This document shows positions 1,508-33,137 of a DNA stretch of 38,693 nt, in pieces (the first letter of the stretch is position 1; every line of letters begins with the position of its first letter). The position numbers were made by a program, and so were the translations under genes. The stretch spans positions 1 through 38,693 of the forward strand of contig JAIFMH010000034.1 of NCBI GenBank assembly GCA_020048595.1, read 5' to 3'. The stretch is from Bacteroidota bacterium (GTDB taxonomy: Bacteria; Bacteroidota; Bacteroidia; Bacteroidales; UBA4417). The notes under the pieces were generated by a model. That model searched no databases, was not told where the DNA came from, and saw nothing but the letters and a program-made list of their open reading frames with translations.

Positions 1508-2089
1508 CTATATTGATAAAGATCGCACGGTCTCCAGCATGGTAAGAATATTTTCTTCCGGGGTGTCATCCTGCACGTTGTGGGCAGGAGCAATGATGTA
1601 ACCTCCATGATTGCCCAGTATTTTTGCCCTTCGCGTTACTTCTTCCCTGATCTGTTCAGGAGTCCGGTTGGGCAATAAATCCTGCACACAAATGCCCCCA
1701 AAAAATGAAATTGAACGACCAAACTCTTCTGAAAGGCTTTCAGGCTCCATGTTGGAAGCCATCGGCTGAATCGGATTCAAGAAATCGAGCCCCAGTTCAA
1801 TAAATTCGGGAATAAGTGGCCGGATTGCGCCGCAGGTGTGCCATGCTATCTTGATTTCCTGATTTACCTGCCTGAACTCATGGAAAATCCTCCATTGAAC
1901 CTTCTGCTGATCCATCTGCCTGATGCGGTTAGCCATCAGATTAGATACTTCGATTTCGATCGTATTTAGCCCTGGGTTTAGAAGTTTCCCAATTCTGGTC
2001 GTAAAAGGGATACTCCACAGGATACCGGCGTCCTGACCATTATTTCTCATTTGCAATCTTCTTTTATGATTTTTTATTTCGTAAGCCAT
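1508..2089 (-). pseudogene. Chimeric gene remnant: C-terminal tail of a jelly-roll glycoside hydrolase fused to the C-terminal third of a uroporphyrinogen-decarboxylase (URO-D/MtaA)-like protein
   Basis: Residues ~35-55 (KLLNPGLNTIEIEVSNLMANRI) match the G-x-N-x-IEI-x-V-x-N-L-x-x-NR tail typical of Bacteroidota GH C-termini. From ~QWRIFHEF onward, IAWHTCGAIRPLIPEFIELGLDFLNPIQP...FFGGICVQDLLP..TPEQIREEV...GGYIIAPAHNVQDDTPEENILTMLETV is the C-terminal part of URO-D-like proteins, and the N-terminal two thirds are missing. The 5' end overlaps the symporter gene by 26 nt. Confidence 0.5.
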
Positions 2090-3611
2090 AAAGCATCAAC
2101 TTTTCGTCAACAGGCTTTCCTTTAAACAGGTAGCTGGCACCCCAACCGACAAAGAACAGTACAAAATGACTGTAAACGCCAAGCATATAGGTGTGATGAG
2201 GAAAATTGAGATTGCCCAAATCCCAAAGTAGTTGTTTTGTCCCGTTCACTTCGTGACTGGTGGTTGTAAGCGTAGCCCAAGCTGTAAAAAGAATACAGGC
2301 AACCATGCCAACATACAATCCTTTCTCATTTGCCTTTGGAATCAGAATACCAAGCAGGAACATCCCAACAATTCCGGCAGAGAAAATGGCATATAATCCA
2401 AATACTACTCCAAGTACACCTTCTCCCCCCCAGTAGTAATAAATGGTGGCTATCACCGCCGAAAGCAATCCGGAAACCACGATGATTATCCGTGCCATCC
2501 TGAGTTTTTTGTGGTCGTTTACATTCTTTTTAAAGCGGGCATAAAAGTCTTCCACACCAATGGCGGAAAGACAGTTAATATCTGAAGCTATTGTGGAAAT
2601 GGCTGCAGCTATCAAAGCTGCAATGATAAATCCTTTAACTCCTACCGGAAGTTGGGTGGTAATGAAGTGCGGAAATACACCTTCGCTGACCATTCCTTCC
2701 GGTAACAACCCGGGAGAAAGTTTATAAAATGCAAATAAAGCTGAGCCTATAAACATGAACATTGCCCATAACGGAACACTCAACAATACTCCAATCAGAG
2801 AAGCCCTGATTGCTTCCTTATCGGATTTGGCTGCCAGGTAACGCTGAACAATGGTTTGATCGGTTCCATATTTTTGAAGAGCATAAAATATTCCATTGAT
2901 CGCCATCACGATAAAAGTAAGTTTGGCGAAATCAATATTGTAAGGACTAAAACTGATTTTGTTCGCTTCGTTCATCACCCTGAAAACCTCTGCCGGTCCT
3001 CCCGCCGGGACAAAAAGAATAATGCCGATACAAATCAAGCCTCCCAGCATCAGCCAGATTCCCTGGAAAACATCCATCCAGATCACACCTTCAAGGCCGC
3101 CAAAGAAGGTAATTACAATGATGGCGATCGTTACAATCCATATTGTAGTAAGTACATCGGCTCCCATCATTGTTCCCAGGGCCAGACTCATCAGATAAAC
3201 TACAGTTCCCAGTTTTGAGAAATGCATCAGCATGAATGCCATGGAGCTGTAAATGCGGGCAGGCAATCCAAATCGCTTCTCAAAATACTCATAGGCGCTT
3301 ATTCCTATTGACCTCCTGAACAAGGGAACTATGAATCCGATCAACCCCACAAGTACAACTGGCACCATCAATCCCTGCACCAACAATAACCAGTTTGACT
3401 TAAATCCTGTTGCAGGGTAAGCCAGAAAGGTAATACTGCTGATAAGAGTTGCCATAATTGAAATACCAATTGCCCATGGAGGGATGTTTCGTCCCCCTGT
3501 AAAAAATTTATCAGAAGTTTTCTGTCTTTTGGCGAAAAACATCCCAATGTAAATGGCAACCGCCACAGATAAAATAATAATTGAATAATCAATCCATCCT
3601 ATTGTTCCCAT
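2064..3611 (-). CDS. Sodium:solute symporter (SSS/SLC5 family), probable acid-sugar importer
   Basis: 515 aa, polytopic. The N-terminus IDYSIIILSVAVAIYIGMFFAKRQKTSDKFFTGGRNIPPWAIGISIMATLISSITFLAYP is a classic SSS signature. It lies in an operon with acid-sugar enzymes. Confidence 0.9.
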   Translation of the reverse strand: MGTIGWIDYSIIILSVAVAIYIGMFFAKRQKTSDKFFTGGRNIPPWAIGISIMATLISSITFLAYPATGFKSNWLLLVQGLMVPVVLVGLIGFIVPLFRRSIGISAYEYFEKRFGLPARIYSSMAFMLMHFSKLGTVVYLMSLALGTMMGADVLTTIWIVTIAIIVITFFGGLEGVIWMDVFQGIWLMLGGLICIGIILFVPAGGPAEVFRVMNEANKISFSPYNIDFAKLTFIVMAINGIFYALQKYGTDQTIVQRYLAAKSDKEAIRASLIGVLLSVPLWAMFMFIGSALFAFYKLSPGLLPEGMVSEGVFPHFITTQLPVGVKGFIIAALIAAAISTIASDINCLSAIGVEDFYARFKKNVNDHKKLRMARIIIVVSGLLSAVIATIYYYWGGEGVLGVVFGLYAIFSAGIVGMFLLGILIPKANEKGLYVGMVACILFTAWATLTTTSHEVNGTKQLLWDLGNLNFPHHTYMLGVYSHFVLFFVGWGASYLFKGKPVDEKLMLYGLRNKKS

Positions 3612-3616
3612 AAAAT

Positions 3617-4765
3617 TTACTTTTTAACATTAATATTTGATTCATTTTTTTTGAAGTTCCAGATTTGTTCAGGGAATTGATAACTCCCCGGTTTTATTGT
3701 TATATATATATTGTCTTTGTTTCTGTTTTTCATTCTGACAACCCCCGGGGCATATTCGAATGTGGGTATAAATTGTGTGTAATTCAGCTTATAGAGTATT
3801 GCCGAGGTTGTTGCTCCGCCTTCAATAACCAACTCATTGACATTCACTTTGGAAAGGATATTACTTACCACTTCAGACATTAAATTCTTTATTTTGTCTG
3901 CTGCCTCTTTTCCCTGCAAAACAGGTTCTCCGATGGCAAGAATTGCATTTTCTCCTTTTTGCATGATAGCAACCACTTCCGAAGCGTAATCATTTATCTT
4001 CTTTTCGCAGTCGGGAGTATCAATGATCAGGGGCGACAGGTAAGTAACATACGCACCACTTGCGGATGATTTTTCAACTTCCTTCCTGCTGTTGGCAAAA
4101 GCGCTACCACGAACAAACAAGGCATTTTTCAGCACAGGAAAAATTGTTTTACCTGTTAAAGTATGATGACCCATGATTTCAAGAAATGCCGCGAAGAAAG
4201 CAGCAGAACCGGCAAGGATAGTTTCGTAATTCCTTAATCGGGCAGCACTTTTCAGATCTTCTTCTGATGTGGCATCCTTGATTGAAATATCGGGATGTTT
4301 TGCACTTTCAACCCCAACAATTTCCTTTACTGCTGAACTCTTCGCCGGGAAATCCGGGTCTTTCGAAAAACCTGTTTCATGCAGGGGAATACCATCAATA
4401 TAATAGGTGCCTTTCATGATTATCCTGCCCGAAGCGGGATTTGCAGGACATAAGACCACTTTCTTTTTACTTTCTGCCTTTAATTGCGCAACCAGCTCTG
4501 CCATTACATGACCGCGTAGCACAGAATCGGTTTTCTTGAAAATAGATTCAATTCCACCGACTGTTAAATTACTTACCGTGTGATAGGTGATTTTTTCAGC
4601 GTCTTCCACACACATCGACCGGGAATCGGTTGAAACTACCCAGAGGTCTGCATCAGGACAAGGGATGTCAGAAAGGGTCGAAAGCACCACCCTGAGTCCG
4701 TATCTGAGTCCGATTCCGGCAATCTCGGCTCCACCGGTAATATCGTCGGCTATTACTGCTATCAT
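3617..4765 (-). CDS. Four-carbon acid-sugar kinase family protein (DUF1537; DtnK/OtnK-like)
   Basis: N-terminus MIAVIADDITGGAEIAGIGL matches the ADD(F/I)TGA motif of DUF1537 kinases. There is a 4-nt overlap with the upstream PdxA-family gene, which is the diagnostic pairing. Confidence 0.85.
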   Translation of the reverse strand: MIAVIADDITGGAEIAGIGLRYGLRVVLSTLSDIPCPDADLWVVSTDSRSMCVEDAEKITYHTVSNLTVGGIESIFKKTDSVLRGHVMAELVAQLKAESKKKVVLCPANPASGRIIMKGTYYIDGIPLHETGFSKDPDFPAKSSAVKEIVGVESAKHPDISIKDATSEEDLKSAARLRNYETILAGSAAFFAAFLEIMGHHTLTGKTIFPVLKNALFVRGSAFANSRKEVEKSSASGAYVTYLSPLIIDTPDCEKKINDYASEVVAIMQKGENAILAIGEPVLQGKEAADKIKNLMSEVVSNILSKVNVNELVIEGGATTSAILYKLNYTQFIPTFEYAPGVVRMKNRNKDNIYITIKPGSYQFPEQIWNFKKNESNINVKK

Positions 4766-5781
4766 TTCTTGGATGTTGTCATTCTTATGGTATAATCGAT
4801 AGAAGTAAGCATGGCCTTTTCACTGGCAATGCCCTTTCCGGCAATTTCAAAGGCAGTACCATGATCAACCGATACTCTGATAATTGGAAGTCCCAGCGTA
4901 ATATTCACACCTTCAACATCCAAAGTCTTTTTGGATTTATTATAATTGAAACCCACCACTTTGAAAGGAATGTGCCCCTGATCGTGGTACATGGCCACGC
5001 AACCATCATACATACCGCCAATGGCTTTTGAAAAGAGTGTATCGGGAGGAACGGGACCTGTAACGTTTAATCCTTCACTTTGCAATGCTTTAATTGCCGG
5101 TATAATCTCCCTTTCCTCTTCCCAGCCAAACAGTCCGTTATCGCCCGAATGAGGATTAAGTCCTGCCACTGCAATTCTTGGTTCGGCAATGCCAAAACCC
5201 CTGCAGGCATCATACAAAAGTCTGGACACTTCAATAATCCGGTCTTTCTGTACACGGTCGCAGGCCTCACGCAGCGATACATGTGTGGATACATGAATAA
5301 CACGCAGATTATTGTGAACCAGCAACATGGCGTACTTTTTAGTATTGGTATAATGGGCATAAATTTCGGTATGTCCCGAGAAATGAAAACCGGCCAGGTT
5401 GATGGCTTCCTTGTTGATGGGCGCTGTAACCGTAGCATCCACTTCACCGCTTTTGGCCAATTCGATTACTTTTACAATGGATTCAAATGCAGCTCTGCCC
5501 GCTTCGGCCGATACGACTCCGTATGCTACATTTTGCTTGAAATTGGCCAGGTCAAACACATCGATGGTGCCATACCTGCTTTTAGCATCGCGGATATTAC
5601 TAATTGCATTGACTTTCAGTGCAACATTCAAAAAGTCAACTGCCTGCTGTATCACTCCTGCATCACCCACCACAACAGGCTTGCATTGCGAGTAAACTGA
5701 TCTTTTCAGAAGCGCTTTTACTATGATCTCCGGGCCGATTCCCGCAGGATCGCCCATTGAAATTCCAATAATTGGTTTCAT
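4762..5781 (-). CDS. pdxA: PdxA-family NAD-dependent decarboxylating dehydrogenase (PdxA2-like, 4-phospho-tetronate dehydrogenase candidate)
   Basis: MKPIIGISMGDPAGIGPEII..., HFSGHTE, GLNPHSGDNG and VDHGTAFEIAGKG are PdxA hallmarks. Adjacency to a DUF1537 kinase argues for a catabolic PdxA2 role rather than B6 synthesis. Confidence 0.85.
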   Translation of the reverse strand: MKPIIGISMGDPAGIGPEIIVKALLKRSVYSQCKPVVVGDAGVIQQAVDFLNVALKVNAISNIRDAKSRYGTIDVFDLANFKQNVAYGVVSAEAGRAAFESIVKVIELAKSGEVDATVTAPINKEAINLAGFHFSGHTEIYAHYTNTKKYAMLLVHNNLRVIHVSTHVSLREACDRVQKDRIIEVSRLLYDACRGFGIAEPRIAVAGLNPHSGDNGLFGWEEEREIIPAIKALQSEGLNVTGPVPPDTLFSKAIGGMYDGCVAMYHDQGHIPFKVVGFNYNKSKKTLDVEGVNITLGLPIIRVSVDHGTAFEIAGKGIASEKAMLTSIDYTIRMTTSKK

Positions 5782-6689
5782 TATTTAAGTTTATATTTTT
5801 TGATTATTTTTTGAGTTTCTTTTATTATCTCTTTTTGCTCTGCAACGGCAATATCGGTTAACGGGGGTAACGCATAAGGTTGACACAAGCCTAATACACT
5901 CATCATCACTTTCAGTGCCTGTAACGAATTCCCCAATGTCCTGCCCGACTGGTAAATTTTGGCAATTTCGTCCGTTTCCATTTGAAGCTGTTCAACCTTT
6001 TGCCATTGTTCAGCCTTAGCATATTCACACATAGCGCGGAACATTCCGGGAGCAAAGTTGCCGGTACTGGGTACGAGTCCATCGGCCCCAAGTTGTAAGG
6101 CTTTTGCCGATACGGCTGCATAGCCCAGAAAATAGGAAAAGTTTTCCCTGTCTTTAAAAAGTTTTAAACACTGCTCCATGCGGGCTTCGTCCCTTTCCGA
6201 ATCCTTGAAACCGCATATGTGCTTTACTTTACTTAGTTCATTCACCACTTCAACGGGGATCGACATTTTGGTTGTAGATGGAATATTATAAACCATCATC
6301 GGAAAATTGATTCTTTCAGCTAGGGTTTTGAAATACCCAAACATCTGTTCGGAAGTTAAGGGGTAATAATAAGGCAAAATTGAAACGATGACATCGGCAC
6401 CTGCCTGAATGTATGCCTTGGCATTAGCAATATTCTCTTCCACACAGTTACCACAGATGCCTGCATAAATCTTTACCCTTCCGGCAACAGTTTCTGAAGC
6501 CAGCTTTACAAGCCTCCTGCTCTCATCCATTGAGACAGAAGGTGATTCTCCGGTAGTCCCAAGTACCAGCATTGAAACACCATTTCGGGCAAGGAAATCT
6601 GCAATTTTAACAACTGCAGTCTCGTCTAATTTCCGTTCACTGCTAACGGGCGTAACCATTGGGACAATAACCCCATTATACTTTTTCAT
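5781..6689 (-). CDS. DapA/NanA-family class I aldolase (pyruvate lyase or dehydratase acting on a 2-keto-3-deoxy acid sugar)
   Basis: GVIVPMVTPV..., LVLGTTGESPSVS and YNIPSTT motifs are typical of the DHDPS/N-acetylneuraminate lyase family. TAATG overlap with the pdxA-like gene. Confidence 0.85.
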   Translation of the reverse strand: MKKYNGVIVPMVTPVSSERKLDETAVVKIADFLARNGVSMLVLGTTGESPSVSMDESRRLVKLASETVAGRVKIYAGICGNCVEENIANAKAYIQAGADVIVSILPYYYPLTSEQMFGYFKTLAERINFPMMVYNIPSTTKMSIPVEVVNELSKVKHICGFKDSERDEARMEQCLKLFKDRENFSYFLGYAAVSAKALQLGADGLVPSTGNFAPGMFRAMCEYAKAEQWQKVEQLQMETDEIAKIYQSGRTLGNSLQALKVMMSVLGLCQPYALPPLTDIAVAEQKEIIKETQKIIKKYKLK

Positions 6690-6703
6690 TATAGCAATTT
6701 ATA

Positions 6704-7849
6704 TTAGAATAATTTATGATAGATTGATTTTGCATCTTCCAGCGTTAGTTCCCTCGGGTTGTTTTTCAACAAGCGTTGCACGCCCATGGCTTTGGTTGCC
6801 AGGCCGTCGACACTGGACTTATCAATTCCCAAAGCGGATAGTTTTGTTGGCACATTACAGGATACCAGCAATTCAGTCAGTTTCTCAACTGCCTGCCTAA
6901 TCATTGCTGTTTCCGGCAACGAGCTGTCCACACCCAGCGCAGCAGCAATTTGTGCATGCTTTTTTACATCAGCCGGTGCATTAAATTCGAAAACAGCAGG
7001 CAGCAGGATGGCATTGGCCAAACCGTGGGGGATATGAAATTCACCACCCAAAGGATAAGATAAAGCATGAACTGCCGATGTATTGACAGGCCCCAGGCAT
7101 AACCCACCATAATAACTTCCAATAGATAGATTGGTACGTGCCTGCATATCCGTACCATCGTGATAAGCCCTGAGCAGACTGCCCGCAATCAGGCGAACTC
7201 CCTCCAGAGCATACAAATCAATCAGCGGATGTGCAAATTTGTTGGTGTATGCTTCGATGCAATGGCAAAGGGCATCAATACCCGTTTCGGCAGTTATTGA
7301 AGGAGGCATGCCAACAGTAAGTACCGGATCCACAATCACCAAATCAGGCACCAGAAACGGACTGATAATCCCTTTCTTCATGTTATCAGTTTCATCTAAC
7401 AGAATGGAATTGGGCGACGATTCGCTGCCCGTTCCGGAAGTGGAGGGTATGCAGGCGAGAAATGTTGACCTACCATTCAGATTACCTATACCTATCATTT
7501 CGGTGATGCTTTGCCTGTTGTTTATTTTTGCAGCAATAACTTTTGCAACATCCATTACGCTTCCGCCACCTATGCCTGCCACAGCATCGATTGGTTGTTT
7601 ATTCAACGATGCCAGAATTGCCTCCACATCATTAATGGTTGGCTCTTTTTGAATGGGGTCAATCAGTATAGCTGAAATGTCATTGGCTTCCAATGCGGGT
7701 AACAAACCTGAAGCAATATTCCGAAGCGGAGAAGCTATGATACAAAGCAGGTTTTTTATACCCATGTTTTTTAGTTCATCCGGTAATTGCAACAGGGCAT
7801 TCTCTCCAAACAGCACCTTCCGGGGCTGTGAAATTGATAATTGTCTCAT
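6704..7849 (-). CDS. Iron-containing (group III) alcohol dehydrogenase
   Basis: GIGGGSVMDVAK nucleotide-binding motif and the His cluster (HCIEAY, HALSYPLGGEFHIPHG) of the Fe-ADH family. Confidence 0.9.
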   Translation of the reverse strand: MRQLSISQPRKVLFGENALLQLPDELKNMGIKNLLCIIASPLRNIASGLLPALEANDISAILIDPIQKEPTINDVEAILASLNKQPIDAVAGIGGGSVMDVAKVIAAKINNRQSITEMIGIGNLNGRSTFLACIPSTSGTGSESSPNSILLDETDNMKKGIISPFLVPDLVIVDPVLTVGMPPSITAETGIDALCHCIEAYTNKFAHPLIDLYALEGVRLIAGSLLRAYHDGTDMQARTNLSIGSYYGGLCLGPVNTSAVHALSYPLGGEFHIPHGLANAILLPAVFEFNAPADVKKHAQIAAALGVDSSLPETAMIRQAVEKLTELLVSCNVPTKLSALGIDKSSVDGLATKAMGVQRLLKNNPRELTLEDAKSIYHKLF

Positions 7850-7852
7850 AGT

Positions 7853-9013
7853 TTATGGTTTCCAGATCGTTTCTGCAATATGTTGCTGTGGATTTTCCTT
7901 TGTAGCCCAATAATAAAGAGCCACGAGTTTATTTTTATGGTTTACCGCCAGGCGCGGATATCCGAAATCCTTGTCGCCAAATTTGTCAGGTTGGAAGTCA
8001 TCCCTTACAATCAATTCCTCACCCCAGCTTTTTCCACCGTCGGAACTAATCCTTGCAAAAAGTTTTGCCCTGGTACGGTCGCCATAAGCACAGGCTATCC
8101 TACCGTCATTGAGTGCCACTATTGCCGGAGGATTTCCGTTCCCTTCGCCCGTTTCACCTACACGGCTCAGAAAACTCCAGGTCTTACCATTATCAGCAGA
8201 ACCATAAGCATCCACCCAGCAAACATCTTTATCGAGCATGCGTCGACGTAAAGCAACAGTTATTGAACCATCTTTCAGACGGCATACCGCAGGCATTACA
8301 GCACGGTATGGGTCACTGAGCGGCACAATCCATGTTACAAACCGGAATGATTTGCCACCATCGGTAGTTTCGGCTACATAGGTTTTGTCTTTCCCGGAAC
8401 CATTTTGCTTTGGCCTGGCTGACATAAACACCAAACACGAGGTTGGTCCGGTCACCAGATATCCGGTTCGTGAAGTACAAATCATTCCCGAAAGATTAGG
8501 GTCTTCCATCAGACCGTTGAAACGATAGGGCCCACGCCAGTTTTTACCCTTGTTTTCCGAAATAAAAAAAGCTCCGTCCGGGTCGAGTGAACCATGATAC
8601 CCAATTCCCATCACCCGCATGGCAAAACCCGGGGCTTTAAAATTTATCTGTCCGGGTGAGGCGACAGGTTCCAAACCATCGCCAACAAAATTTGACGGGT
8701 CTTCCTGTTTCCAAGTCTTTCCCCCATCGGTGCTGCGTGCCAGCCGGCTTTTGATATTCCTGGTCGTATCCGACATTCCTTCGATGTTATGACCTTTTTG
8801 CTCGACAAATCTGCCATACGAATATCCCACCAGAATTTCCTTTCCATTGTCCCATGACCAAACACCATTGTTGGCGGGCCATCCACCAAACTTGTTTTTT
8901 TCCTGAAATGCTATACCATTTTTTGCACCTTTTACTGTTTGTGCATCAGTACTTTTAAAGCCAATCAACAGCAGAGTGGCAATTATCCATGTCAGATTTA
9001 CTGTTCTTTTCAT
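7853..9013 (-). CDS. Secreted BNR/Asp-box repeat protein, sialidase-fold beta-propeller (exo-alpha-(keto-deoxy)ulosonidase candidate)
   Basis: Signal peptide, then four Asp-box motifs: STDGGKTW, TTDGGKSF, SADNGKTW and SSDGGKSW. Confidence 0.8.
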   Translation of the reverse strand: MKRTVNLTWIIATLLLIGFKSTDAQTVKGAKNGIAFQEKNKFGGWPANNGVWSWDNGKEILVGYSYGRFVEQKGHNIEGMSDTTRNIKSRLARSTDGGKTWKQEDPSNFVGDGLEPVASPGQINFKAPGFAMRVMGIGYHGSLDPDGAFFISENKGKNWRGPYRFNGLMEDPNLSGMICTSRTGYLVTGPTSCLVFMSARPKQNGSGKDKTYVAETTDGGKSFRFVTWIVPLSDPYRAVMPAVCRLKDGSITVALRRRMLDKDVCWVDAYGSADNGKTWSFLSRVGETGEGNGNPPAIVALNDGRIACAYGDRTRAKLFARISSDGGKSWGEELIVRDDFQPDKFGDKDFGYPRLAVNHKNKLVALYYWATKENPQQHIAETIWKP

Positions 9014-9121
9014 TTTTTATATAGATTAATTCTCATTTGAGAAAAAAATTTACTTAAACTAAATTCAGAGCCCAACTGTGTTATCCTTTGCTTTCCATCG
9101 GTAAAAAATTGGTTTTCGATT

Positions 9122-12100
9122 TCATTGCTTGTCCTTATTGTTGATCTTCTGTGTGTCCAGCCATTCTCCATCGTGGAACCGGACGATAACAGGGGCGGAC
9201 TGATAGTTCTTACCGGGTTTGCCACCGTTGCAGTCCACGAAGTTGAATTCGACTCCTATCGGCAGACCGCGCAATTCGTCGGGCCGGGGCCAGTTGCCGT
9301 CTTCGCGGAGGCTGGCGCCGCTCGGAAGCAGGCGCATTTGGGCCACGATCGCGCGGTTATCCTGATCGTGCGCACCGATATACACCCAAGGACCGGGAGT
9401 TGGTGACCGAAAGGCGATCCATGGCTCGCCCAAGGTCACAGGCAGGCCGTCCCCCCCGAATTGCCTACCCATTTCCTGTCGATAGCCGAAGAACTGCTCT
9501 GGTGCGTCGCCGCCAAACGAGTAATTCTTGAAGGTGCGGAAGATGTCCGCCTTGATGGTGGTTTTCTTCGCATCGAGATGCACGAACTGGGTGGCTTTGA
9601 GTTGGCCCTGATTGGTCCCGAGACCCTGGATGCCGCCGAGGACGGGGAAATATGTTTCGCCTACCGCATACGGTGTCCGGTTCTCGATCGTGAGGTTGAA
9701 CACGACTCCGCCCCCAACCAGTTCGAGTGTCTGCGTGACAGACACATCGTATTTCTCGCCGAGGTAATTGGCGAGGGGACCTGTCCAGGTCAGCACAAGC
9801 TTTCCGCCTTCCATACGGGCGGACGAGAGCTTCTGCCTGGCACCGATGATCCAATTGGCCTCGATGTCCTGCCACGGCTCCTTGCCCGGCAAGGTCAGCC
9901 CGAACATCCAGCTTCCGGCAAGGCGCGGTTCGAGGATCAGGTCGAGCTTGCTCCGCTTGTCATGAATTCGGGTTACAGAGCCATTTTTGCGACTGACCTC
10001 AACCAATATGTTCCCGTCCTCCAGCTTGACGGAGCGTGCCGGATTAAAAGCCGGCAACTCTGGCACCGGCGTTTCATTCGGCACACGGGCGATGGCCAGA
10101 CGTTGTGGAACGGTTGCACGTGTCGGTACAGTCTTTTCCTCCAACTCCTCGACAAACAGAATCTGCTCCGCCGCAATGGTGATGGAAGCCGGCAGATTCA
10201 CGACATGGCTTTCGAGGCCGGGCTGATGAATCCTCACGCTGGGCGACCTGGCCTTGTCGAATCCAGTCACCGCCATGGTCTGCGGGTCCATCTTCGCGTT
10301 GGTCAGAATGCAGGCCCGGAGGGCGGTGCGGCGATTGCGGAAGACGTTGAACTCAACTCCTGCCGGCACCGGCTTTTCCATTGTCACTCCATTGTGACCA
10401 AGCACTTCTCCCTGGAAAACCGTTTCCTGAAGTTGGTCCCGGATGCGCTTCACATCGCGGATATGCTCGTTGAGTCCTTCCATCACTTTAAGGTCCATTC
10501 CTCCGGAAAATTTCATTGGTGTGATCATGACGTGGTGACCGTCGCGGACCAGGTTGTTGACCAACAGGTAGTCGTAGGCATCCTTCAGACCTTCCGTCTC
10601 GGCGAGCTCGGGGAAGAGGGCGCGGGTGAAGGATCGGGGAGTGCCGACCCACCACTCGCTACTGCCAAACTGCAACATACGGTCCCAGTTGCATTCAAAG
10701 GACATCGCCCAGTTGGGGTTGTGCTTCCGGCAAGCAGCGAGGACTTCTTTGGATTGCAGGATCGCGCCTTCCCACGTCGTCATGTCCGGGCTCATCGGTG
10801 ATTCGGGATTGAACGAGAGAAAATCCGGGTACATCTTGTCCACATGCACGCCGTCAGCGCCAATTTTGGCCAGTGCCTCGAACTGGTCGGTGATGATCTT
10901 CCGGAACTGCGGGAAACCGAGGTCCGCCTTGGTCATCAACCGCGGATATCCCATCCGGCCCCAAAGCGAACCGTAACCCCAGCCCACGTTCCAGGTGAGG
11001 TCGCCGTTTTCCTTCCACTCGCGATACTTTTGCAGCTCGTCCTGATACCAACGGGTGTTGAGCGTCATCACCTGATAGTTGACGAAGAAGTACACCTTGA
11101 CCCCCATTTTGTGACAGGCACGGATGCCCTCCTCGAGGTCCTTCCAGGTGCCCAGGCGCGGATCGGGCGTGTAGTAGGGAAGCCCGTTGTCATGGCCGCA
11201 GGTCTCCCAACCGCTGATCTGAACGGCGTTGATGCCGTAATCCTTGGCCGCTTTCGCCCAGCGGGGGATGTCTTTGAAGGTGTAGTTGATGGTTCCTTCC
11301 GGCAGCATGAACATCGTGAACACAAAGAACGACTCCTTGCGAATCCAGTCCTTTCCGGGGTCGGCCAAACCAAAGGTGCGCGTGAAGAAATCCCGATAGA
11401 CGCGCCCCGCCTCGCGCCAGCCGCCATCCACGATCTTCAACACCACGGGCGAGCCGTCGAACGATTCGCCCGGCGGCGTGAACGGCAGGTGCCGCACTGA
11501 GGCGAACACATCCTTCACTATCCCTGTGCCTTGTTCCTCGAACCGGAATTCCTTGGCGCGGGCGATTTCATCGTGGGAGGCGAAATAAAGCGATTTTCCT
11601 GCTGACATACTCTCGATGCAGGCGAAGGACATGCTTGCCTGCCCGGGATATTCGAAAGTCGATATTCCAAAGGGTGGTTCGACTTTCTTCGATGTAAATC
11701 CTCGGACCGGCGCCCATAGCATGCCATCGGTTGGTTTGCCGGGCGAACCGAACTTTGCCAACCCGCCAATAAGCGGATAAGAAGCTGAACGGATCTTGCC
11801 CGCCGTGCGGTTGTCCAGATGCAGCCTGAACTCCAGAGCGTTGCCGGAGGTCTGCACCTCCATCCTTACGGCGACCTCGTGTGCAGCGCCGTCGGTGTCT
11901 TTCATCGGGCCGTTCCACTTCAGTGTAATCCCGCCAGACCTGCGGGTGACTTCAGTTAGGTATTGCTCCCGGCCCAGGATCGTCACCGTCTTGTTCCCCG
12001 GCAGGCCGAGTTCCAGACGGAAGTTCCCGGCCAATTCCGGCGACGATGACAACTCGATGCCACTTTGCTTGTCGAGGATGCGGCTGATCCGGCCGAAGAC

Positions 12101-12244
12101 CGAATCGATTTCGACTACTACTTGTTCGTTCCCGAGAAGAACAGGTATTTGGTTTGCCTTATTAACGGCCTGTGCTTTAATGATACTAAAAGCAATCAAT
12201 AGTAATGTGACACTAATCAATATGAAATTGAATGTTCTTCTCAT
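9122..12244 (-). CDS. GC-rich secreted 1040-aa protein: beta-sandwich N-module plus TIM-barrel-like glycoside-hydrolase-like module, followed by a second truncated copy of the N-module (unclassified family)
   Basis: Long ORF with an AT-rich signal-peptide region (MRRTFNFILISVTLLLIAFSIIKAQA) that switches to GC-rich codons. The central GINAVQISGWE...MGVKVYFFVNYQ...GADGVHVDKMYP looks like a TIM-barrel GH-like domain. The N-module (about residues 38-290) recurs at about residues 740-1030. The start overlaps the stop of 12241..14244 by ATGA. Confidence 0.8.
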   Translation of the reverse strand: MRRTFNFILISVTLLLIAFSIIKAQAVNKANQIPVLLGNEQVVVEIDSVFGRISRILDKQSGIELSSSPELAGNFRLELGLPGNKTVTILGREQYLTEVTRRSGGITLKWNGPMKDTDGAAHEVAVRMEVQTSGNALEFRLHLDNRTAGKIRSASYPLIGGLAKFGSPGKPTDGMLWAPVRGFTSKKVEPPFGISTFEYPGQASMSFACIESMSAGKSLYFASHDEIARAKEFRFEEQGTGIVKDVFASVRHLPFTPPGESFDGSPVVLKIVDGGWREAGRVYRDFFTRTFGLADPGKDWIRKESFFVFTMFMLPEGTINYTFKDIPRWAKAAKDYGINAVQISGWETCGHDNGLPYYTPDPRLGTWKDLEEGIRACHKMGVKVYFFVNYQVMTLNTRWYQDELQKYREWKENGDLTWNVGWGYGSLWGRMGYPRLMTKADLGFPQFRKIITDQFEALAKIGADGVHVDKMYPDFLSFNPESPMSPDMTTWEGAILQSKEVLAACRKHNPNWAMSFECNWDRMLQFGSSEWWVGTPRSFTRALFPELAETEGLKDAYDYLLVNNLVRDGHHVMITPMKFSGGMDLKVMEGLNEHIRDVKRIRDQLQETVFQGEVLGHNGVTMEKPVPAGVEFNVFRNRRTALRACILTNAKMDPQTMAVTGFDKARSPSVRIHQPGLESHVVNLPASITIAAEQILFVEELEEKTVPTRATVPQRLAIARVPNETPVPELPAFNPARSVKLEDGNILVEVSRKNGSVTRIHDKRSKLDLILEPRLAGSWMFGLTLPGKEPWQDIEANWIIGARQKLSSARMEGGKLVLTWTGPLANYLGEKYDVSVTQTLELVGGGVVFNLTIENRTPYAVGETYFPVLGGIQGLGTNQGQLKATQFVHLDAKKTTIKADIFRTFKNYSFGGDAPEQFFGYRQEMGRQFGGDGLPVTLGEPWIAFRSPTPGPWVYIGAHDQDNRAIVAQMRLLPSGASLREDGNWPRPDELRGLPIGVEFNFVDCNGGKPGKNYQSAPVIVRFHDGEWLDTQKINNKDKQ
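9150..12135. other. GC-rich compositional island 1 (putative horizontally acquired coding body)
   Basis: An abrupt shift by eye from AT-rich to GC-rich sequence. Long arginine/proline-rich antisense shadow ORFs (9461..10801, 10844..11500) occur only here. Boundaries are approximate (tens of nt). Confidence 0.7.
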
Positions 12245-14271: not shown

Positions 14272-16260
14272 TTACCGGCCAAACCCGAATGGTTTCTTTA
14301 CCGTTTACGGGGGGCGCCGGACGTTGCATGTATACGGCGCAGTCGCGTCCGAGCCGATCTTCACCCCGTCCACATAGAACTCCACGTTCGTGATGGCACC
14401 GTATGACGTTGTCGCCGAAACCTTGATAGGCGCCGTAGTCCCAGCGGTCACCGTCGCACCGTTTGTTGAAAATCATGTTCATGGCGCCTCGATCCTGACG
14501 CGCTGCACCTGGAAGACCGCCGGGGTCGGCAGCGGCACGTCGACGGCGGCATCGACGCCCTTGTTGTCGGTGACCCCGCGCCAGACACCTGTGCGCAAGG
14601 ACAGCCGCTGCAAGGTCTTGGCGTCCGCCTCGGCCACGGCCAGTTCCTGCGCCGCGCCGCCATTGACATGCACGTTGTAGCGGCCCGCCTCCGCATCGGC
14701 GACGATGACCAGGGAGAGCTTCTCTCCCGCCGTGTATGTGCCGAGGTCAACGGCGTTGTTCCCGTCCGCCGCCTGCACCGTGCCGGTCTCAGTCAGCACC
14801 ACACGCACCGGCCGGCGGCTGGCGGGATCGCAGAGTTCGATCTCCAGCCGGGCGTTGGCCTGGGCCGGCGTCAGTTCCAGTTCGACCCGAACCTTTGCCG
14901 ATTCAGGGAACACGCGCACGGCGCGGGCGTAGTCGAAGGGATCGCCGTCGCGCAGTTCCAGGCTGCGTTTCCCGGCGTTCTCGACGACAGTCACAGGTGC
15001 CCACTTCGGGCTGTAGAGATTCCATCCCGGCACGACGGCGTTGGGCGTGGCCTTCGTGAAATCGTCCGTCGGGAACGCGGTCTCGTCCGGTTTGACCGGC
15101 AGAGCGATGCGCGACACCCAGATGTCTTCCTTGTTGACGCTGTAGACCAGCCACAGCGCCTGCTTCGTGTCCGCGAACGTACCGTCATCGGCCCACTCGG
15201 CCAGCCCGCGCACGTACTGCGCGCCGGGATTCTTGTACTTTCCCGGATAGCGAAGCGGGGGAAGTTCGCCATGGACTACCCGCAGGTCGCGGAATTCGCG
15301 GCCGTCATCGCCGTGAACGATGACAAGGGGATAACGGATTTGCCGGCCCGGGTCAGGGTTGTAGGCAAGGGCGAAACGGCCATCGTCCGTTCTTTGCCCC
15401 CAGATCTTGCCAGATCCAGCCAGCAGCGACGGTGGCTGCACCGGCCGTGACCAGGTCTGGCCATTGTCATCCGACAACGTCACAAGTCCCATCTTGCACA
15501 GACCGACCAATGCCCCGTCCTGGCGGTGGTAGAAGCAGAGGGCCTTGCCGAACTTCCAGAAACCGACGCTGTTCAACTCCTTGTCGGCATGCCACTTCAT
15601 GCGGAGGTCGCCGAGATAGACACCGTAGTCCTGCTGTTCCAGGAGAAGGTTGCTTCCAGCGGCTTCGCGGCAGGCCGCCACAAAACCGGCATCCGTTGAC
15701 GTCTCGAAAGACGGCAGCAGATCCGGCAGCGGGGCGATCAAGGTGAACACCTCGCCGAGCTGATGATCGGCCGTGATCTCCCGGACCAGCAGCACCTTCT
15801 TCTCGGCCTCGCTGACCGTGCTGTCAGCCGTATTGCCGGCGCAGAACGCCAGCATCCGCCCGTTGGTGGCGCGGTAGAAGTAGAAACGAGCGGCACAGGA
15901 GACCTTGCGCGGGAAGAGATCAGCCGGCGCGGACCACTGCCAACCGTCCCTCGATGTCGCATATACGACCTTGTAGGGAGGAACGTCCTCGTCCTTCGGC
16001 GTCATGGCCCAGGCGGCATAGATCCGGCCCTTCCAGACCGCCAGGTCCTGGTGGTGGGCGTAGGTCCAGCCGTCGCCATCGGCCTGCTCCGGCTGGTTGC
16101 GGCTCGCACGCAGGATCTGGATGTTCTGCACGCCGACGACGGGTTTCAGCCCGCCATCGGGCAACTGCAGGTTGAGGCGGCCTTGTTCATTGCCGCTGAC
16201 CACGATGGGCGTGCTCTTTTCCTGCGCGGCGAGTGGCGATGGGGTCATCAAATTGAGGGC
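14272..16260. other. GC-rich compositional island 2
   Basis: Same visual criteria as island 1. Shadow ORFs 14668..15450 and 15763..16281 occur on the + strand. The lower boundary falls inside the Ig-like remnant and the upper boundary inside the signal peptide. Confidence 0.7.
14305..14478 (-). pseudogene. Truncated bacterial Ig-like (Big_7-type) domain remnant, in frame with the upstream gene behind two TGA codons
   Basis: Reading on in the frame of 14479..16290 gives ...RIEAP TGA T TGA FSTNGATVTAGTTAPIKVSATTSYGAITNVEFYVDGVKIGSDATAPYTCNVRRPP TAA. The pattern NGAT-x-TAG...VEFY-x-DG-x-x-(I/L)G-x-D-x-x-APY is the first ~55 aa of an Ig-like domain and is cut off where the GC-rich DNA ends. Track ORF 14267..14482 is a different frame over the same DNA. 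Confidence 0.5.
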
Positions 16261-16290
16261 GATAATCATCATTATCAATAATCTTTTCAT
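14479..16290 (-). CDS. GC-rich secreted sialidase-fold/BNR-like propeller protein with a C-terminal LamG/jelly-roll-like domain
   Basis: 603 aa with signal peptide MKRLLIMMIIALNLMTPSPLAAQ. It has Asp-box-like motifs (SRDGWQWS, SDDNGQTWS) and a C-terminal beta-sandwich-like region. The body uses GC-rich codons and the first ~10 codons are AT-rich. Confidence 0.75.
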   Translation of the reverse strand: MKRLLIMMIIALNLMTPSPLAAQEKSTPIVVSGNEQGRLNLQLPDGGLKPVVGVQNIQILRASRNQPEQADGDGWTYAHHQDLAVWKGRIYAAWAMTPKDEDVPPYKVVYATSRDGWQWSAPADLFPRKVSCAARFYFYRATNGRMLAFCAGNTADSTVSEAEKKVLLVREITADHQLGEVFTLIAPLPDLLPSFETSTDAGFVAACREAAGSNLLLEQQDYGVYLGDLRMKWHADKELNSVGFWKFGKALCFYHRQDGALVGLCKMGLVTLSDDNGQTWSRPVQPPSLLAGSGKIWGQRTDDGRFALAYNPDPGRQIRYPLVIVHGDDGREFRDLRVVHGELPPLRYPGKYKNPGAQYVRGLAEWADDGTFADTKQALWLVYSVNKEDIWVSRIALPVKPDETAFPTDDFTKATPNAVVPGWNLYSPKWAPVTVVENAGKRSLELRDGDPFDYARAVRVFPESAKVRVELELTPAQANARLEIELCDPASRRPVRVVLTETGTVQAADGNNAVDLGTYTAGEKLSLVIVADAEAGRYNVHVNGGAAQELAVAEADAKTLQRLSLRTGVWRGVTDNKGVDAAVDVPLPTPAVFQVQRVRIEAP

Positions 16291-17624: not shown

Positions 17625-17737
17625 ATTCGTATCGTCGCTCCTTTGCTACGCATTATCTTAATTTTTTCTTAAACATTATACCTCTCATATATTCTGACTA
17701 TTATTTTTTATCCTTTACCGATTTGTTGAAGAAGCAT

Positions 17738-17962
17738 TTAGGGGTCATTCCAGTTAGTATTGTGCGATTTCCCTTTTTGTAAACCAGCTGCAATAAAAAA
17801 ATTACTGAAACCAGCCGAGTTTAAACTATCATTCAGGCCCTGCCAAACGCTTTCGATTGCCCCTGTTTTAAGAGCCTCCTGATAATTTGCCTGAGCCAAA
17901 CAAGTCAGATTAATAAATAGTATGAGTTGTAATGCAATGATTTTTCGATTGGTTGACTTCAT
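17738..17962 (-). CDS. Small hypothetical secreted protein, or an N-terminal gene remnant
   Basis: 74 aa with a signal-like N-terminus (IIALQLILFINLTCLAQA). No recognisable domain. Confidence 0.25.
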   Translation of the reverse strand: MKSTNRKIIALQLILFINLTCLAQANYQEALKTGAIESVWQGLNDSLNSAGFSNFFIAAGLQKGKSHNTNWNDP

Positions 17963-17986
17963 TTTTTTCGTTTTAATAAACGATAT

Positions 17987-18436
17987 TCAAACCTTAACTT
18001 TCACAACTACTTTTCTAATAGGCATGCTCTTACCGGAAATGACCTTTGGCATGTGAAGGTCCTGTGGATACATAATGGCAAACATCCCTTTGGTATATCT
18101 GATCATATCTGGATTCCCGATAAATAACCAGTAATCCTCCTTTTCGTGGTAAGGCTCTGATATTTCCTGATTGTTCAGCCATTCATAGCCAATACACTCT
18201 TCACCTTCAATCATAAAATGAATATCAATGTAATTTTTGTGCGCCTCTAAAAGGCTTTCATCCAACGATTTTGTGGTACATTCCACTACCATTGCATACA
18301 CATTTTTTCCATCAAGAGCATACTCTCCTGATTCAACTTTTGAGAAATCGGTTTCACTTAAATACTGAAGGGCTGTTTTAATACGTTCGCCCAAACCAAA
18401 ATAAAGTGTGGCATTTGAAATGTGATCTGTAATCAT
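17987..18436 (-). CDS. YhcH/YjgK/YiaL family protein (DUF386; NanQ-like sugar-acid anomerase/isomerase family)
   Basis: 149 aa. The pattern ...ALQYL...G.Y.LDG..VYA.V......ES.LEAH..YIDIH..I.GEE.IG is typical for the family. Confidence 0.8.
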   Translation of the reverse strand: MITDHISNATLYFGLGERIKTALQYLSETDFSKVESGEYALDGKNVYAMVVECTTKSLDESLLEAHKNYIDIHFMIEGEECIGYEWLNNQEISEPYHEKEDYWLFIGNPDMIRYTKGMFAIMYPQDLHMPKVISGKSMPIRKVVVKVKV

Positions 18437-18456
18437 CTTTTTTGTTTTTTAAATTA

Positions 18457-18846
18457 TTAGTTTCTATTTTTTTCTCCAAAAACATCACGCACTGCCTCAA
18501 GGTATTTATACCCCGAGCGCAAATCCGGTTCGAGGTAACTTCCTTCAGTCCACTCGTTCCAGCAATTAATATTAAAAGTATTGCCACAATCAGGATTATT
18601 CTTCATGAATAATTTAGTTTCCTCCAATGCAGCCTTGAAAGCTTCCGGGGTATTTCCTCCCATTTTTGCCATAAACGGATAGCCAATATCAACCAGAGAA
18701 TCGTTCTGGTTTGTTCGCGGACTTGCATCCCAGCCCATGGTTACATTCGGGAAATAGGAAACACCATAATCTGTTTTTGCCTTCTCCCAATGTTCGAAAT
18801 AGCGGTCTCGAACCCAGTTGTAATCGGTTTGCGTTTCCTCTCTCAT
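18457..18846 (-). pseudogene. 5'-truncated WbsX / GH99-like family fragment (C-terminal ~130 aa only)
   Basis: YFPNVTMGWDASPR and NCWNEWTEGSYLEPD match the C-terminal part of WbsX-type proteins, whose full length I recall as about 370-400 aa. The upstream sequence is AT-rich with stops in frame. Confidence 0.55.
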
Positions 18847-18903
18847 GGTGATAAATTTTAATGAATTATTATTGACAAATCATTAATTATCAGTAATATA
18901 ATA

Positions 18904-20096
18904 TCAGAAAAAATCATTCCCATCAGACTTTGATTTTGGCCTCACCATAAACAATAGGATAGCACATATTATCATGATTAAAGCTGCGAACTGATACATA
19001 TTACTGAGATTTATGTTCGAGTCACGCAAAACCCCACCGGCATATATTGCCAAAGCATTGGCATCATATTGGAATCTCCGAACGCTCGTGTAAAAGAAAA
19101 TATCATAAAAGCAAAAATTGCAAGAGGTAGAATTGTAGTCCAGCTTGCTAAAAAAATGCAAGGTGCAGCTATTAAAAGGCCAATAGCAGGAACATGAATC
19201 CTTGAAAGGCGGTTTTTCCGGCTCCACCTGTCTGCAATAAAACCGCCGAAAAGTAATCCACCTATTGCTGCAGGATATAAATAACCAGTTGCATAAAGTC
19301 CGGCAATACCCTGGGAAAGGTTGAAATTTTCCTTATAGTATGTAGGGAGCCATCCCATCACTAGCCAACCGACAACTCCTAAAAGACCCCAGTATCCAAG
19401 CATCAAAAGAAAAGATCTCTTCCTAAACAGATCCCTTATACCTACAAAAAAGTTGATTTTACGCTCGGCTTTTCTTGTAATATTGTTTACAACATTTTTT
19501 GGTGGATCCTTAAGAAAAACCGCGACAACTATTGAATACACTATCCCCGCAACACCAAAAGAGATGAATAAAAAGTTCCAGGAATGATTTTCGGCAAGTA
19601 ATCCACCAAGAAATCCCAGACTCGATCCAACAAAAATTCCTGTCATATGAATTCCTGTTGCCAGGGAACGGGTAGAACTTCGGTGGTAATCTGCTATAAG
19701 TGCCAACGCTGCAGGAATATAACCTGCTTCACTTATACCCATTAATATCCGGGTAATCAATAATTGTTCAAATGTTCTTGAGTAAGCTGTCAACCATGTT
19801 ACTGCTGACCAGACTAATAAGCTTACGATAACAACACGGCTGCGATTAAATCTATCTGCAAGAAATCCTGCAAAAGGACTAAATATCCCATATGTCCATA
19901 AAAAAGCTGAAGTTAGAAGACCGAATTGAGCATCACTCATCGGAATTGCGTCGATAATTGAAGATCGCATAGTAGTGATCATTATACGATCGAGATAATT
20001 TAAGGCACCTATAAAAAAAAGTAATACAACTACAAGCCATGCGCCTTTTGGTAATTTTGATTCCGGAGTTAGTATCTCAGATGGAGTAATAGACAT
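18904..20096 (-). pseudogene. MFS transporter (ACS/hexuronate-type) with an internal deletion and frameshift near the 3' end
   Basis: Frame 1 (19011..20096) encodes TM1-10 and ends ...FGDSNMMPMLWQYMPVGFCVTRT*. The expected TM11-12 (..ALAIYAGGVLRDSNINLSNMYQFAALIMIICAILLFMV..) is encoded in another frame (18904..~19065). The usual ~20 aa between MPxLxQ and the (I/L)Y-x-GG-x-LRD segment appear to be missing. Confidence 0.5.
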
Positions 20097-20219
20097 TTGC
20101 GTTTGGTTTAAATTTAGAAAACTCTCTTTAAATGGTTAATCACTGACTCAGCCAGATTCTCTCCTTATCTGATAAACGATTGTTAATTATTTAGACCGTC
20201 ATCGAAACATGAAATTACC

Positions 20220-21143: not shown

Positions 21144-21206
21144 TAATTATCCTATTTAATTTGTATTGTTTTTTTATTCACACCCTCTTTCAACAGTTTA
21201 TAGCAA

Positions 21207-22013: not shown

Positions 22014-22077
22014 AATTAAAAACTCCTATATTATAATTTAAATTTAGTAAGTATATTTTCCCCTGTTCGGCTTTATA

Positions 22078-29460: not shown

Positions 29461-29481
29461 TTTATCTAAATTAATGGTTAT

Positions 29482-33129: not shown

Positions 33130-33137
33130 TATTTTTT

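Follow-up and report, generated by a model that had tools for sequence, protein, structure and literature searches.

No plant glycan is considered more complex than rhamnogalacturonan II (RG-II). Its depolymerisation by gut Bacteroides has been worked out one enzyme at a time, but what becomes of its unusual acid sugars has not. [quoted passage not shown] Here we analyse a 38,693-nucleotide contig of a Bacteroidota bacterium (JAIFMH010000034.1, assembly GCA_020048595.1; the whole stretch is called the window), in which a six-gene operon at positions 2064-9013 encodes a BNR/sialidase-fold protein, an Fe-dependent alcohol dehydrogenase (Fe-ADH), a lyase of the dihydrodipicolinate synthase (DHDPS)/NanA family, a PdxA2-like dehydrogenase, a DUF1537 kinase and a sodium:solute symporter (SSS). 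We infer, for all substrates and reactions, that five of these genes form a cassette degrading Dha to pyruvate, dihydroxyacetone phosphate (DHAP) and CO2, and we put the probability of this reading at about two in three. The enzyme families and the end module (DtnK/PdxA2) are already known, while the Dha route itself is undescribed; full-text searches of the searchable literature found no Dha catabolic pathway, in line with what an earlier, sequence-only reading of this DNA had stated.

The end module has its counterpart in the pair DtnK and PdxA2, whose D-threonate pathway reportedly (work of 2016) starts from free D-threonate imported by a transporter. In the window, members of these two families are again neighbours with translational coupling, and the predicted end product is likewise DHAP plus CO2. 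The window proteins differ, however, in being divergent and below the equivalog cut-offs, and in having a lyase and a reductase upstream of them, such that D-threonate would be an internal intermediate formed from a C7 diacid. Sialic acid (nan) catabolism shares with the locus a sialidase-fold hydrolase, import of a 2-keto-3-deoxy acid, a class I lyase of the same fold and a DUF386 gene. In contrast to the nan system, the window lyase is not a NanA equivalog, genes for an N-acetylmannosamine kinase, an epimerase, NagA and NagB are absent, a reductase, a kinase and a decarboxylating dehydrogenase act downstream in the predicted route, and the context is that of plant pectin.

The glucarate/galactarate route employs the aldolase GarL, the tartronate-semialdehyde reductase GarR and the glycerate kinase GarK. 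Here too a keto-deoxy diacid would be split into pyruvate and an aldehyde-acid that is reduced and then phosphorylated, the Gar route being one carbon shorter. At every step the enzyme belongs to another, non-homologous family, with a DHDPS-type rather than HpcH-type aldolase, an Fe-ADH in place of a beta-hydroxyacid dehydrogenase and a DUF1537 protein in place of a glycerate kinase, and the Dha route would need an extra oxidative decarboxylation to reach a triose phosphate.

The RG-II loci of B. thetaiotaomicron (BT1020, GH143/GH142; BT0997, GH138; BT1003, GH127; with GH78 and GH106 enzymes) offer a further comparison. GH143 homologues occur in the window and in L041 and L164 (L-numbers denote individual loci from our genome and metagenome scans), GH138 occurs in L142 and in Prevotella loci, and GH127, GH78 and GH106 flank the cassette. 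The B. thetaiotaomicron loci have been described for depolymerisation only, with no fate given for Dha, and the GH143 protein of the window stands alone, lacking the GH142 domain of BT1020. D-apiose is another RG-II sugar, and its routes (aplK, aptA/aptB; DUF1537-based apionate) likewise serve a rare sugar through dedicated small operons, some with DUF1537 kinases; genes resembling them adjoin the cassette in Prevotella loci. Substrate and chemistry differ, and to our knowledge the apiose routes have no lyase, Fe-ADH or PdxA. As for 3-deoxy-D-manno-oct-2-ulosonic acid (Kdo), B. thetaiotaomicron is reported to secrete it, in a 2026 RG-II preprint that leaves pathways for the secreted Kdo in other gut microbes unconfirmed and does not address Dha (bioRxiv 10.64898/2026.03.13.711244).

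Organisation and conservation of the operon

The six open reading frames (ORFs) run from 9013 to 2064 on the minus strand, co-directional and tightly packed, at the 3' end of a long minus-strand array. In operon order they encode the BNR protein (7853-9013, 386 aa; Pfam BNR_2/BNR, E = 1e-13), the Fe-ADH (6704-7849, 381 aa; Fe-ADH and ADH_Fe_C, 2e-52), the lyase (5781-6689, 302 aa; DHDPS, 7e-60), the PdxA2-like dehydrogenase (4762-5781, 339 aa; PdxA, 1e-109), the DUF1537 kinase (3617-4765, 382 aa; SBD_N (PF07005), 3.5e-35, and NBD_C (PF17042), 8.8e-9) and the SSS symporter (2064-3611, 515 aa; SSF, 2e-42, and NCBIfam sss superfamily), with intergenic gaps of +3, +14, -1, -4 and +5 nt. Both the tight packing of six genes claimed by the sequence-only reading (gaps of -4 to +14 nt) and its family assignments (BNR, Fe-ADH, NanA/DapA, PdxA, DUF1537, SSS) agree with the ORF coordinates and with Pfam. 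A promoter and terminator scan, using a tool that does not cover Bacteroidota promoters, gave matches at chance level.

Approximately 1,500 relatives of the lyase were found, and an 18-sequence alignment was scanned against one genome per species, from which 80 loci were kept. Nearly all are titled Bacteroidales (Prevotella, Duncaniella, Bacteroides, Phocaeicola and Tannerella), many come from rumen or gut, and lyase identity is 49-57%. By tblastn, the lyase was present in all 80 loci, the SSS symporter in 76, PdxA in 70, the kinase in 64 and the Fe-ADH in 63; taking tblastn and ORF clustering together gives ranges of 71-76 for SSS, 68-70 for PdxA and 61-63 for Fe-ADH. The lyase, SSS, Fe-ADH, PdxA and kinase genes are almost always contiguous and in this order, with SSS usually directly after the lyase, and as a cassette they are conserved in about 61-74 of the 80 loci. 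In the window the genes for PdxA and the kinase share 4 nt; the two lie side by side in about 64 of the 80 loci and also in L142, L145 and L164 (see below). L083 carries the lyase and a DUF1537 kinase without PdxA. The cassette kinases form one family (28-63% identity), distinct from a second DUF1537 type of the Prevotella loci. In most of these 80 independent loci, five of the six genes have homologues that stand next to one another, so the operon grouping is not a chance juxtaposition, and because the surroundings vary, these genes constitute a self-contained five-gene cassette. The BNR gene appears in a single one of the 80 loci and is therefore outside the conserved core and lineage-specific.

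Linkage of the cassette to GH143 and other RG-II genes

The most informative neighbour of the operon, missed by the sequence-only reading, lies outside it at 14479-16290 on the minus strand. This gene encodes a stand-alone GH143-like protein of 603 aa with the Pfam domains Beta-prop_BT_1020 (PF24067) and Sialidase-like_CBM (PF22585), the latter resembling a carbohydrate-binding module (CBM). Residues 40-585 align with residues 37-590 of BT1020 (PDB 5mqr; phmmer E = 2.7e-87), so that the protein is a full-length homologue of the N-terminal beta-propeller and CBM-like domain of BT1020. Judged by this homology, it is most likely the Dha-releasing enzyme of the locus, a role that need not fall to the BNR protein.

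Genes related to pectin, RG-II or apiose were found within 10 kb of the cassette in 26 of the 80 lyase-centred loci. In L041, from a Tannerella metagenome-assembled genome (MAG), a single strand carries a BT1020-like gene of full length (1105 aa), genes for a GH78 rhamnosidase and a GH127 enzyme, and then the cassette. L004 has a GH143-like gene adjoining the Fe-ADH, with GH28 and GH95 following SSS, and L002 has GH143-like, BNR-like and SusC genes upstream of the lyase. The cassette is preceded in 8-12 Prevotella loci by genes for a FucI-like isomerase, an FGGY kinase and a split transketolase, which look like the D-apiose transketolase route, whose genes have been named aplK, aptA and aptB (PMC13001218).

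In the reciprocal scan, a GH143 alignment was searched against metagenome contigs; 80 loci were kept, 62 of them with at least 3 kb of flank, and in seven of these 62 a cassette gene was directly adjacent to GH143. The gene order is Fe-ADH, DHDPS, DUF1537, PdxA, GH143, SSS, GH138 in L142, where PdxA and GH143 overlap by 4 nt, and SSS, Fe-ADH, DHDPS, DUF1537, PdxA, GH143 in L145. Shorter arrays were seen in L147 (PdxA, GH143, SSS), L126 and L158 (PdxA, GH143) and L127 (DUF1537, GH143), and L085, the window's 95% relative, has the same synteny as the window. Because the six contigs other than L085 have a GC content of 61-71% and lyases 42-47% identical to that of the window, they represent distant lineages; the motifs GTTGE, YN(I/M)PxTT and KDSE are shared. 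The L142 gene after SSS matches BPa0997 (PDB 6hzf; E = 8e-232), which we take to be an RG-II galacturonidase of family GH138, and shares 43% identity with a gene beside the Prevotella cassettes. The BT0997 entry in PMC13501991 agrees with this identity.

A third set of loci was seeded with BNR homologues. Here, L164 (a Verrucomicrobiota MAG) combines DHDPS, PdxA and DUF1537 with three GH143 genes in tandem, followed by a BNR homologue and GH127, and L166 holds two GH143 genes, two BNR genes and GH106. Coupling that recurs in different arrangements in several phyla is strong evidence of a shared substrate, because chance proximity (within 10 kb) of a single-copy gene is expected in well under 1% of genomes. 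Comparison of the 1040-aa and 667-aa proteins of the window with similar-sized genes beside GH143 in L145 and L127 revealed no homology.

Locus L165 was rejected as a cassette, its DHDPS protein being 25% identical and non-orthologous. In this locus, which lies in a complete genome (OW818647.1), positions 8030-11092 hold a remote DHDPS-family gene followed by genes for an aldo-keto reductase and a BNR homologue. GH106 and GH127 are close by, and a lyase and a reductase from other families may follow the same logic there.

The GH143 homologue of the window is foreign to the locus in composition (GC 0.64; GC at third codon positions, GC3, 0.81). It is one of three such genes, the others being 9122-12244 (DUF6259; GC3 0.72) and 26157-27632 (a 491-aa unknown protein; 0.77), among neighbours with a GC3 of 0.27-0.45, and one of the three overlaps a low-GC gene by 4 nt. 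Since high-GC bacteria have GH143 inside the same cassette, this suggests gene-by-gene acquisition from high-GC donors.

Two further gene sets were observed beside the cassette or GH143 in other loci. In L007, L035, L048 and L078 (approximately 2800-8400 in each), a second, different DUF1537 kinase occurs with a beta-keto acid cleavage enzyme (BKACE), an Asp/Glu-racemase-like protein and a transporter of the major facilitator superfamily (MFS); this set adjoins both the apiose-like genes and the cassette in the Prevotella loci and is a candidate for an undescribed route for another acid sugar, for example aceric acid or apionate. A corrinoid (B12)-binding protein is encoded directly upstream of the lyase in two Bacteroidales MAGs (L003, 2138-2770; L004, 9272-9904), and an MtaA/URO-D-like methyltransferase lies near GH143 in the high-GC contig L127 (7536-8597). 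Together they hint at corrinoid-dependent O-demethylation of methylated RG-II sugars.

Proposed functions of the encoded proteins

Class I pyruvate lyases with the DHDPS fold share a lysine, tyrosine and GxxGE signature, which the window lyase retains as K162 (Schiff base), Y134 (catalytic) and the motif G44-T-T-G-E48. K162, Y134 and GTTGE are invariant in 18 Bacteroidales sequences, and K162, Y134 and E48 are still invariant when high-GC and distant relatives are included. Within the motif YNIPSTT, a threonine (T140, invariant in the 18-sequence alignment) occupies the place that we take, from the E. coli DapA motif YNVPSRT, to correspond to Arg138 of DapA. A KDSERD motif follows the lysine; it is invariant in the 18 Bacteroidales lyases and appears as KDSE in the high-GC orthologues. 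The scores against named enzymes were all below cut-off: 173 bits against 206 for dapA (TIGR00674), 132 against 281 and 106 against 382 for NanA, 78 against 374 for KdgD and 125 against 390 for 2-keto-3-deoxygluconate aldolase, with HpaI also below its cut-off. By these residues and scores the lyase is not DapA, NanA or KdgD, and a genuine DapA, on which the sequence-only reading would have foundered, is thus not what the operon encodes. We propose that the enzyme is a Dha aldolase releasing pyruvate and D-threuronate. Public annotation of such genes is generic or wrong: relatives of the lyase bear the name '4-hydroxy-tetrahydrodipicolinate synthase', and the cluster is named only 'dihydrodipicolinate synthase family protein'.

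The best NCBIfam matches of the Fe-ADH are of the lactaldehyde reductase and 4-hydroxybutyrate dehydrogenase types, all below cut-off. Its family includes succinate-semialdehyde reductases, whose reaction is the deoxy analogue of the step proposed here, the reduction of D-threuronate (D-tartrate semialdehyde) to D-threonate.

The PdxA protein of the operon passes the pdxA model TIGR00557 (355 bits, cut-off 290). Its bit scores are 286 against PDB 6e85, a D-threonate 4-phosphate dehydrogenase, 274 against 2hi1, Salmonella PdxA2, and 206 against E. coli PdxA (1ps6), and by sequence it is therefore nearer to the PdxA2 structures than to E. coli PdxA. PdxA2 is a catabolic paralogue that is hard to annotate and is misannotated as PdxA (PMC9997740). 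The window enzyme is proposed to act as an NAD-dependent oxidative decarboxylase, converting 4-phospho-D-threonate to DHAP and CO2. Its partner has the two-domain DUF1537 architecture, of which the N-terminal domain alone matches the PDB DUF1537 structures 4xfr, 4xfm and 1yzy. On sequence grounds this protein is a member of the DUF1537 family but not a demonstrable DtnK orthologue, and it is a proposed D-threonate 4-kinase. The SSS symporter would be the inner-membrane importer of the free acid sugar.

The BNR protein begins with a signal-peptide-like N-terminus (MKRTVNLTWIIATLLLIGFKSTDAQ). Its AlphaFold model (mean confidence score, pLDDT, 91.6) is a sialidase-type beta-propeller, and Pfam (BNR/BNR_2), AlphaFold and Foldseek agree on a six-bladed propeller with Asp-box repeats, the fold of GH33-type sialidases. 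A Foldseek search with the model recovered sialidases and the uncharacterised structure 5hx0 at TM scores of 0.6-0.7, the sialidases at about 0.6 and 10-17% identity; the nearest solved structure was the uncharacterised Dfer_1899, with many sialidases next. Sequence matches to sialidases were marginal (E = 3e-5 or weaker), and the best match was again the uncharacterised 5hx0. Within the lineage of the window (L081 and L082, 82% lyase identity; L085, 95%), the gene retains its place upstream of the Fe-ADH. It belongs to a family of approximately 390-aa proteins that are 58-70% identical across Bacteroidota, KSB1 and Verrucomicrobiota, with homologues adjoining GH143 genes in L130-L133, L141, L148, L164 and L166. 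Members were observed repeatedly beside GH143, GH106 and GH127, often near a cupin protein. These proteins might constitute a glycoside hydrolase family for ulosonic acids that has so far escaped description, and the window protein is a candidate periplasmic exo-ulosonidase releasing Dha or Kdo. The sequence-only reading had assigned the release of Dha to this sialidase-fold protein; the fold is borne out, but the likeliest releaser is the GH143 homologue and not necessarily the BNR protein.

A proposed pathway for Dha

Dha, a rare seven-carbon acid, counts among the signature sugars of RG-II. Its open-chain form is 4,5,6-trihydroxy-2-oxoheptanedioate, and cleavage between C3 and C4 yields pyruvate and OHC-CHOH-CHOH-COOH. 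In Fischer projection, the D-lyxo configuration (C4 left, C5 left, C6 right) makes this fragment D-threuronate, and because the threaric skeleton is C2-symmetric, reduction of the aldehyde gives D-threonate. This independent derivation agrees with the stereochemistry put forward by the sequence-only reading.

According to the proposed mechanism, a periplasmic GH143-type hydrolase, possibly together with the BNR protein, would free Dha from an RG-II-like glycan, and the SSS symporter would import it. A YhcH-type anomerase may open the ring, after which the NanA-like class I lyase would use the Schiff base at K162 to cut Dha between C3 and C4, giving pyruvate and D-threuronate. The Fe-ADH would reduce the latter to D-threonate, making its sole primary hydroxyl, which the DUF1537 kinase would phosphorylate to 4-phospho-D-threonate. 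Finally, the PdxA2-like enzyme would oxidise C3 and the product would decarboxylate to DHAP and CO2. The predicted net conversion, Dha + ATP to pyruvate + DHAP + CO2, is redox-neutral.

This scheme accounts for the presence of an alcohol dehydrogenase beside an acid-sugar kinase, because Dha has carboxylates at both ends and a terminal kinase needs a primary alcohol made by a reductase. By our own reasoning on established reactions, a 2-keto-3-deoxy dicarboxylic acid is the sole kind of substrate for which a terminal kinase must wait for a reductase. Kdo was rejected as the substrate, since its cleavage yields D-arabinose, unusable by the kinase or PdxA, and aceric acid was rejected since it has no pyruvate-lyase site; neither explains all five genes. 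The conservation of the cassette and its coupling to GH143 and RG-II genes thus support the route from Dha through D-threonate to DHAP that the sequence-only reading had proposed on the strength of carbon arithmetic (C7 = C3 + C4), with the enzymatic steps argued from family membership. Somewhat less firmly than for the overall conversion, we favour the view that the cassette is the missing Dha route, in which a new NanA-like Dha aldolase and a D-threuronate reductase feed a DtnK/PdxA2 module.

Several observations weigh against the Dha reading. About nine cassettes are without the Fe-ADH, GH143 lies within 10 kb in only 3 of the 80 lyase-centred genome loci, and approximately two thirds of these loci have no recognisable pectin gene nearby. 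The kinase matches the D-threonate kinase model NF047819, its best in NCBIfam, with 111 bits against a cut-off of 450 and over residues 2-154 only, and PdxA reaches 324 bits against the cut-off of 583 for D-threonate-4-phosphate dehydrogenase (NF002891); such divergent proteins could use a related substrate, D-erythronate or a branched tetronate for example. Only a single GH143 enzyme has been characterised, and the tandem paralogues in L164 and L141 suggest more than one specificity. The window also holds a second pyruvate aldolase, of the HpcH type, whose family takes C6/C7 diacids as substrates; this enzyme might serve as Dha aldolase instead. Finally, the typical RG-II backbone enzymes GH28 and PL1 (polysaccharide lyase family 1) are lacking in the window locus, and because of this the target glycan may be an RG-II fragment or another Dha-containing polymer.

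Alternative explanations

Linkage to RG-II genes alone does not single out Dha, and the cassette might serve a different RG-II acid sugar, for which aceric acid and a modified ulosonic acid are candidates. In the aceric-acid version, the Fe-ADH would reduce C1, the DUF1537 kinase would phosphorylate the product, and PdxA would oxidatively decarboxylate a branched tetronate-like acid. In its favour, L041 and L164 have an adjacent gene of GH127, to which the aceric-acid hydrolase BT1003 belongs, the scores of the kinase and PdxA fall far short of the equivalog cut-offs for D-threonate, and DUF1537 kinases reportedly (work of 2018) also act on branched C5 acids in apiose routes. Against this, aceric acid has no 2-keto-3-deoxy motif and would leave the lyase, the most conserved gene, without a role, and the D-arabinose from Kdo would be useless to the kinase and PdxA. 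Moreover, the glycosidase within the cassettes of L142 and L145 is GH143, followed in L142 by the chain-A galacturonidase GH138. We consider another RG-II sugar unlikely, at perhaps one chance in eight.

A second alternative would have the DHDPS enzyme act as a KdgD-like dehydratase/decarboxylase, or as some other non-aldolase, on Dha or a hexarate-derived keto-deoxy diacid, with the kinase and PdxA serving a separate tetronate. KdgD does have the same fold and does act on a keto-deoxy diacid, it is among the weaker NCBIfam matches of the lyase, and the lyase belongs to an uncharacterised subfamily with its own KDSERD motif. The KdgD score nevertheless falls far short of its cut-off, which speaks against the dehydratase that the sequence-only reading had kept as an option, and the Fe-ADH, kinase and PdxA would be left without a supplier although their genes are contiguous with the lyase across phyla. 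This makes a non-aldolase role very improbable.

Two unrelated modules might instead have come to lie side by side, one for uptake and cleavage of sialic acid, Kdn or Kdo (sialidase-fold protein, SSS symporter and NanA-like lyase) and one for salvage of D-threonate or D-erythronate (DUF1537 kinase and PdxA2). Each half does resemble a known system, the first the nan cluster with its SSS transporter and YhcH anomerase and the second the DtnK/PdxA2 pair, and L083 has the lyase and kinase without PdxA. The halves, however, co-occur, usually interleaved, in more than 60 loci and in distant phyla, the lyase scores of 106-132 bits compare with NanA cut-offs of 281-382, and the context is plant pectin, not host sialoglycans; we give this arrangement little credence. 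Least of all do we credit a chance placement of housekeeping DapA (lysine) and PdxA (vitamin B6) in a glycan locus, for although relatives carry the DapA annotation and the pdxA model is passed, the essential Arg138 of DapA is replaced by threonine, the dapA cut-off is unreached, PdxA is nearer to PdxA2, itself misannotated as PdxA (PMC9997740), and the genes are tightly packed with a transporter and kinase and coupled to GH143.

The surrounding polysaccharide utilisation locus

The array that ends in the cassette operon is a Bacteroidota polysaccharide utilisation locus, with SusC/SusD-like genes adjacent to each other and the regulator and glycoside hydrolases on the same strand. It is headed by the core of the locus (27976-34888), which comprises by Pfam an extracytoplasmic function (ECF) sigma factor and FecR anti-sigma factor (33138-34888, minus strand), a SusC-like TonB receptor with an STN domain (29482-33021, minus) and a SusD-like protein (27976-29460, minus). 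A GH29 fucosidase is present at 24605-26005 (Pfam), as the sequence-only reading had noted, but the 'GH78-like' gene it named escaped detection by Pfam, NCBIfam and PDB sequence searches. The sole trace of a rhamnosidase in the window is a short ORF at 1508-2089, which starts with a match to a GH106 C-terminus and joins this to the C-terminal part of an MtaA/URO-D-like methyltransferase. Several proteins of the array have no family assignment. PDB sequence searches with the unassigned 667, 1040, 544 and 491-aa proteins gave no useful match, and a polyubiquitin match of the 544-aa protein was discarded as spurious, having no significant stretch. The 544-aa (22900-24534) and 491-aa (26157-27632) proteins match the same regions of related contigs and, by sequence, look like paralogues.

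The second aldolase lies at 19011-22887 (minus strand; Pfam) in a module of a short-chain dehydrogenase/reductase, an HpcH/HpaI/GarL-type class II pyruvate aldolase, an aldo-keto reductase and a galactonate-type, acid-sugar MFS transporter. This module was found in none of the 80 lyase-centred loci; it could serve keto-deoxy acids derived from fucose or rhamnose, or an alternative route for C6/C7 diacids. Its transporter gene (19011-20096) appears frameshifted, with an apparent tail in 18904-19227, a piece without a family match, and the ORF at 18457-18846 encodes no more than the C-terminal quarter of a WbsX/GH99-like protein. Both 17625-19227 and 1508-2089 show signs of gene decay.

A YhcH/YjgK/YiaL protein (Pfam DUF386, full length, E = 1e-43) is encoded at 17987-18436 on the minus strand. 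YhcH of E. coli is an anomerase that hands open-chain sialic acid to the NanA lyase (PMC8141875). By analogy, the window protein is a candidate anomerase that would provide the lyase with open-chain ulosonic acid, but since no YhcH homologue was found near the cassette in the other loci, it is not counted as part of the core.

Implications

If the Dha reading is correct, the cassette would supply a natural physiological source of D-threonate, the substrate of the DtnK/PdxA2 pathway, and the pathway would occur widely among Prevotella, Muribaculaceae and Bacteroides of the rumen and gut and among Verrucomicrobiota-like bacteria of soil or freshwater. The highly conserved 390-aa BNR family would then represent a second, undescribed family of ulosonic-acid hydrolases beside GH143. 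The hypothesis is directly testable in vitro, as it concerns four readily expressible enzymes. Once defined, a Dha route would put right the widespread labelling of the cassette genes as DapA and PdxA, would fill in part of the carbon balance for pectin fermented in the gut and rumen, and would predict cross-feeders living on the sugars that primary degraders set free.

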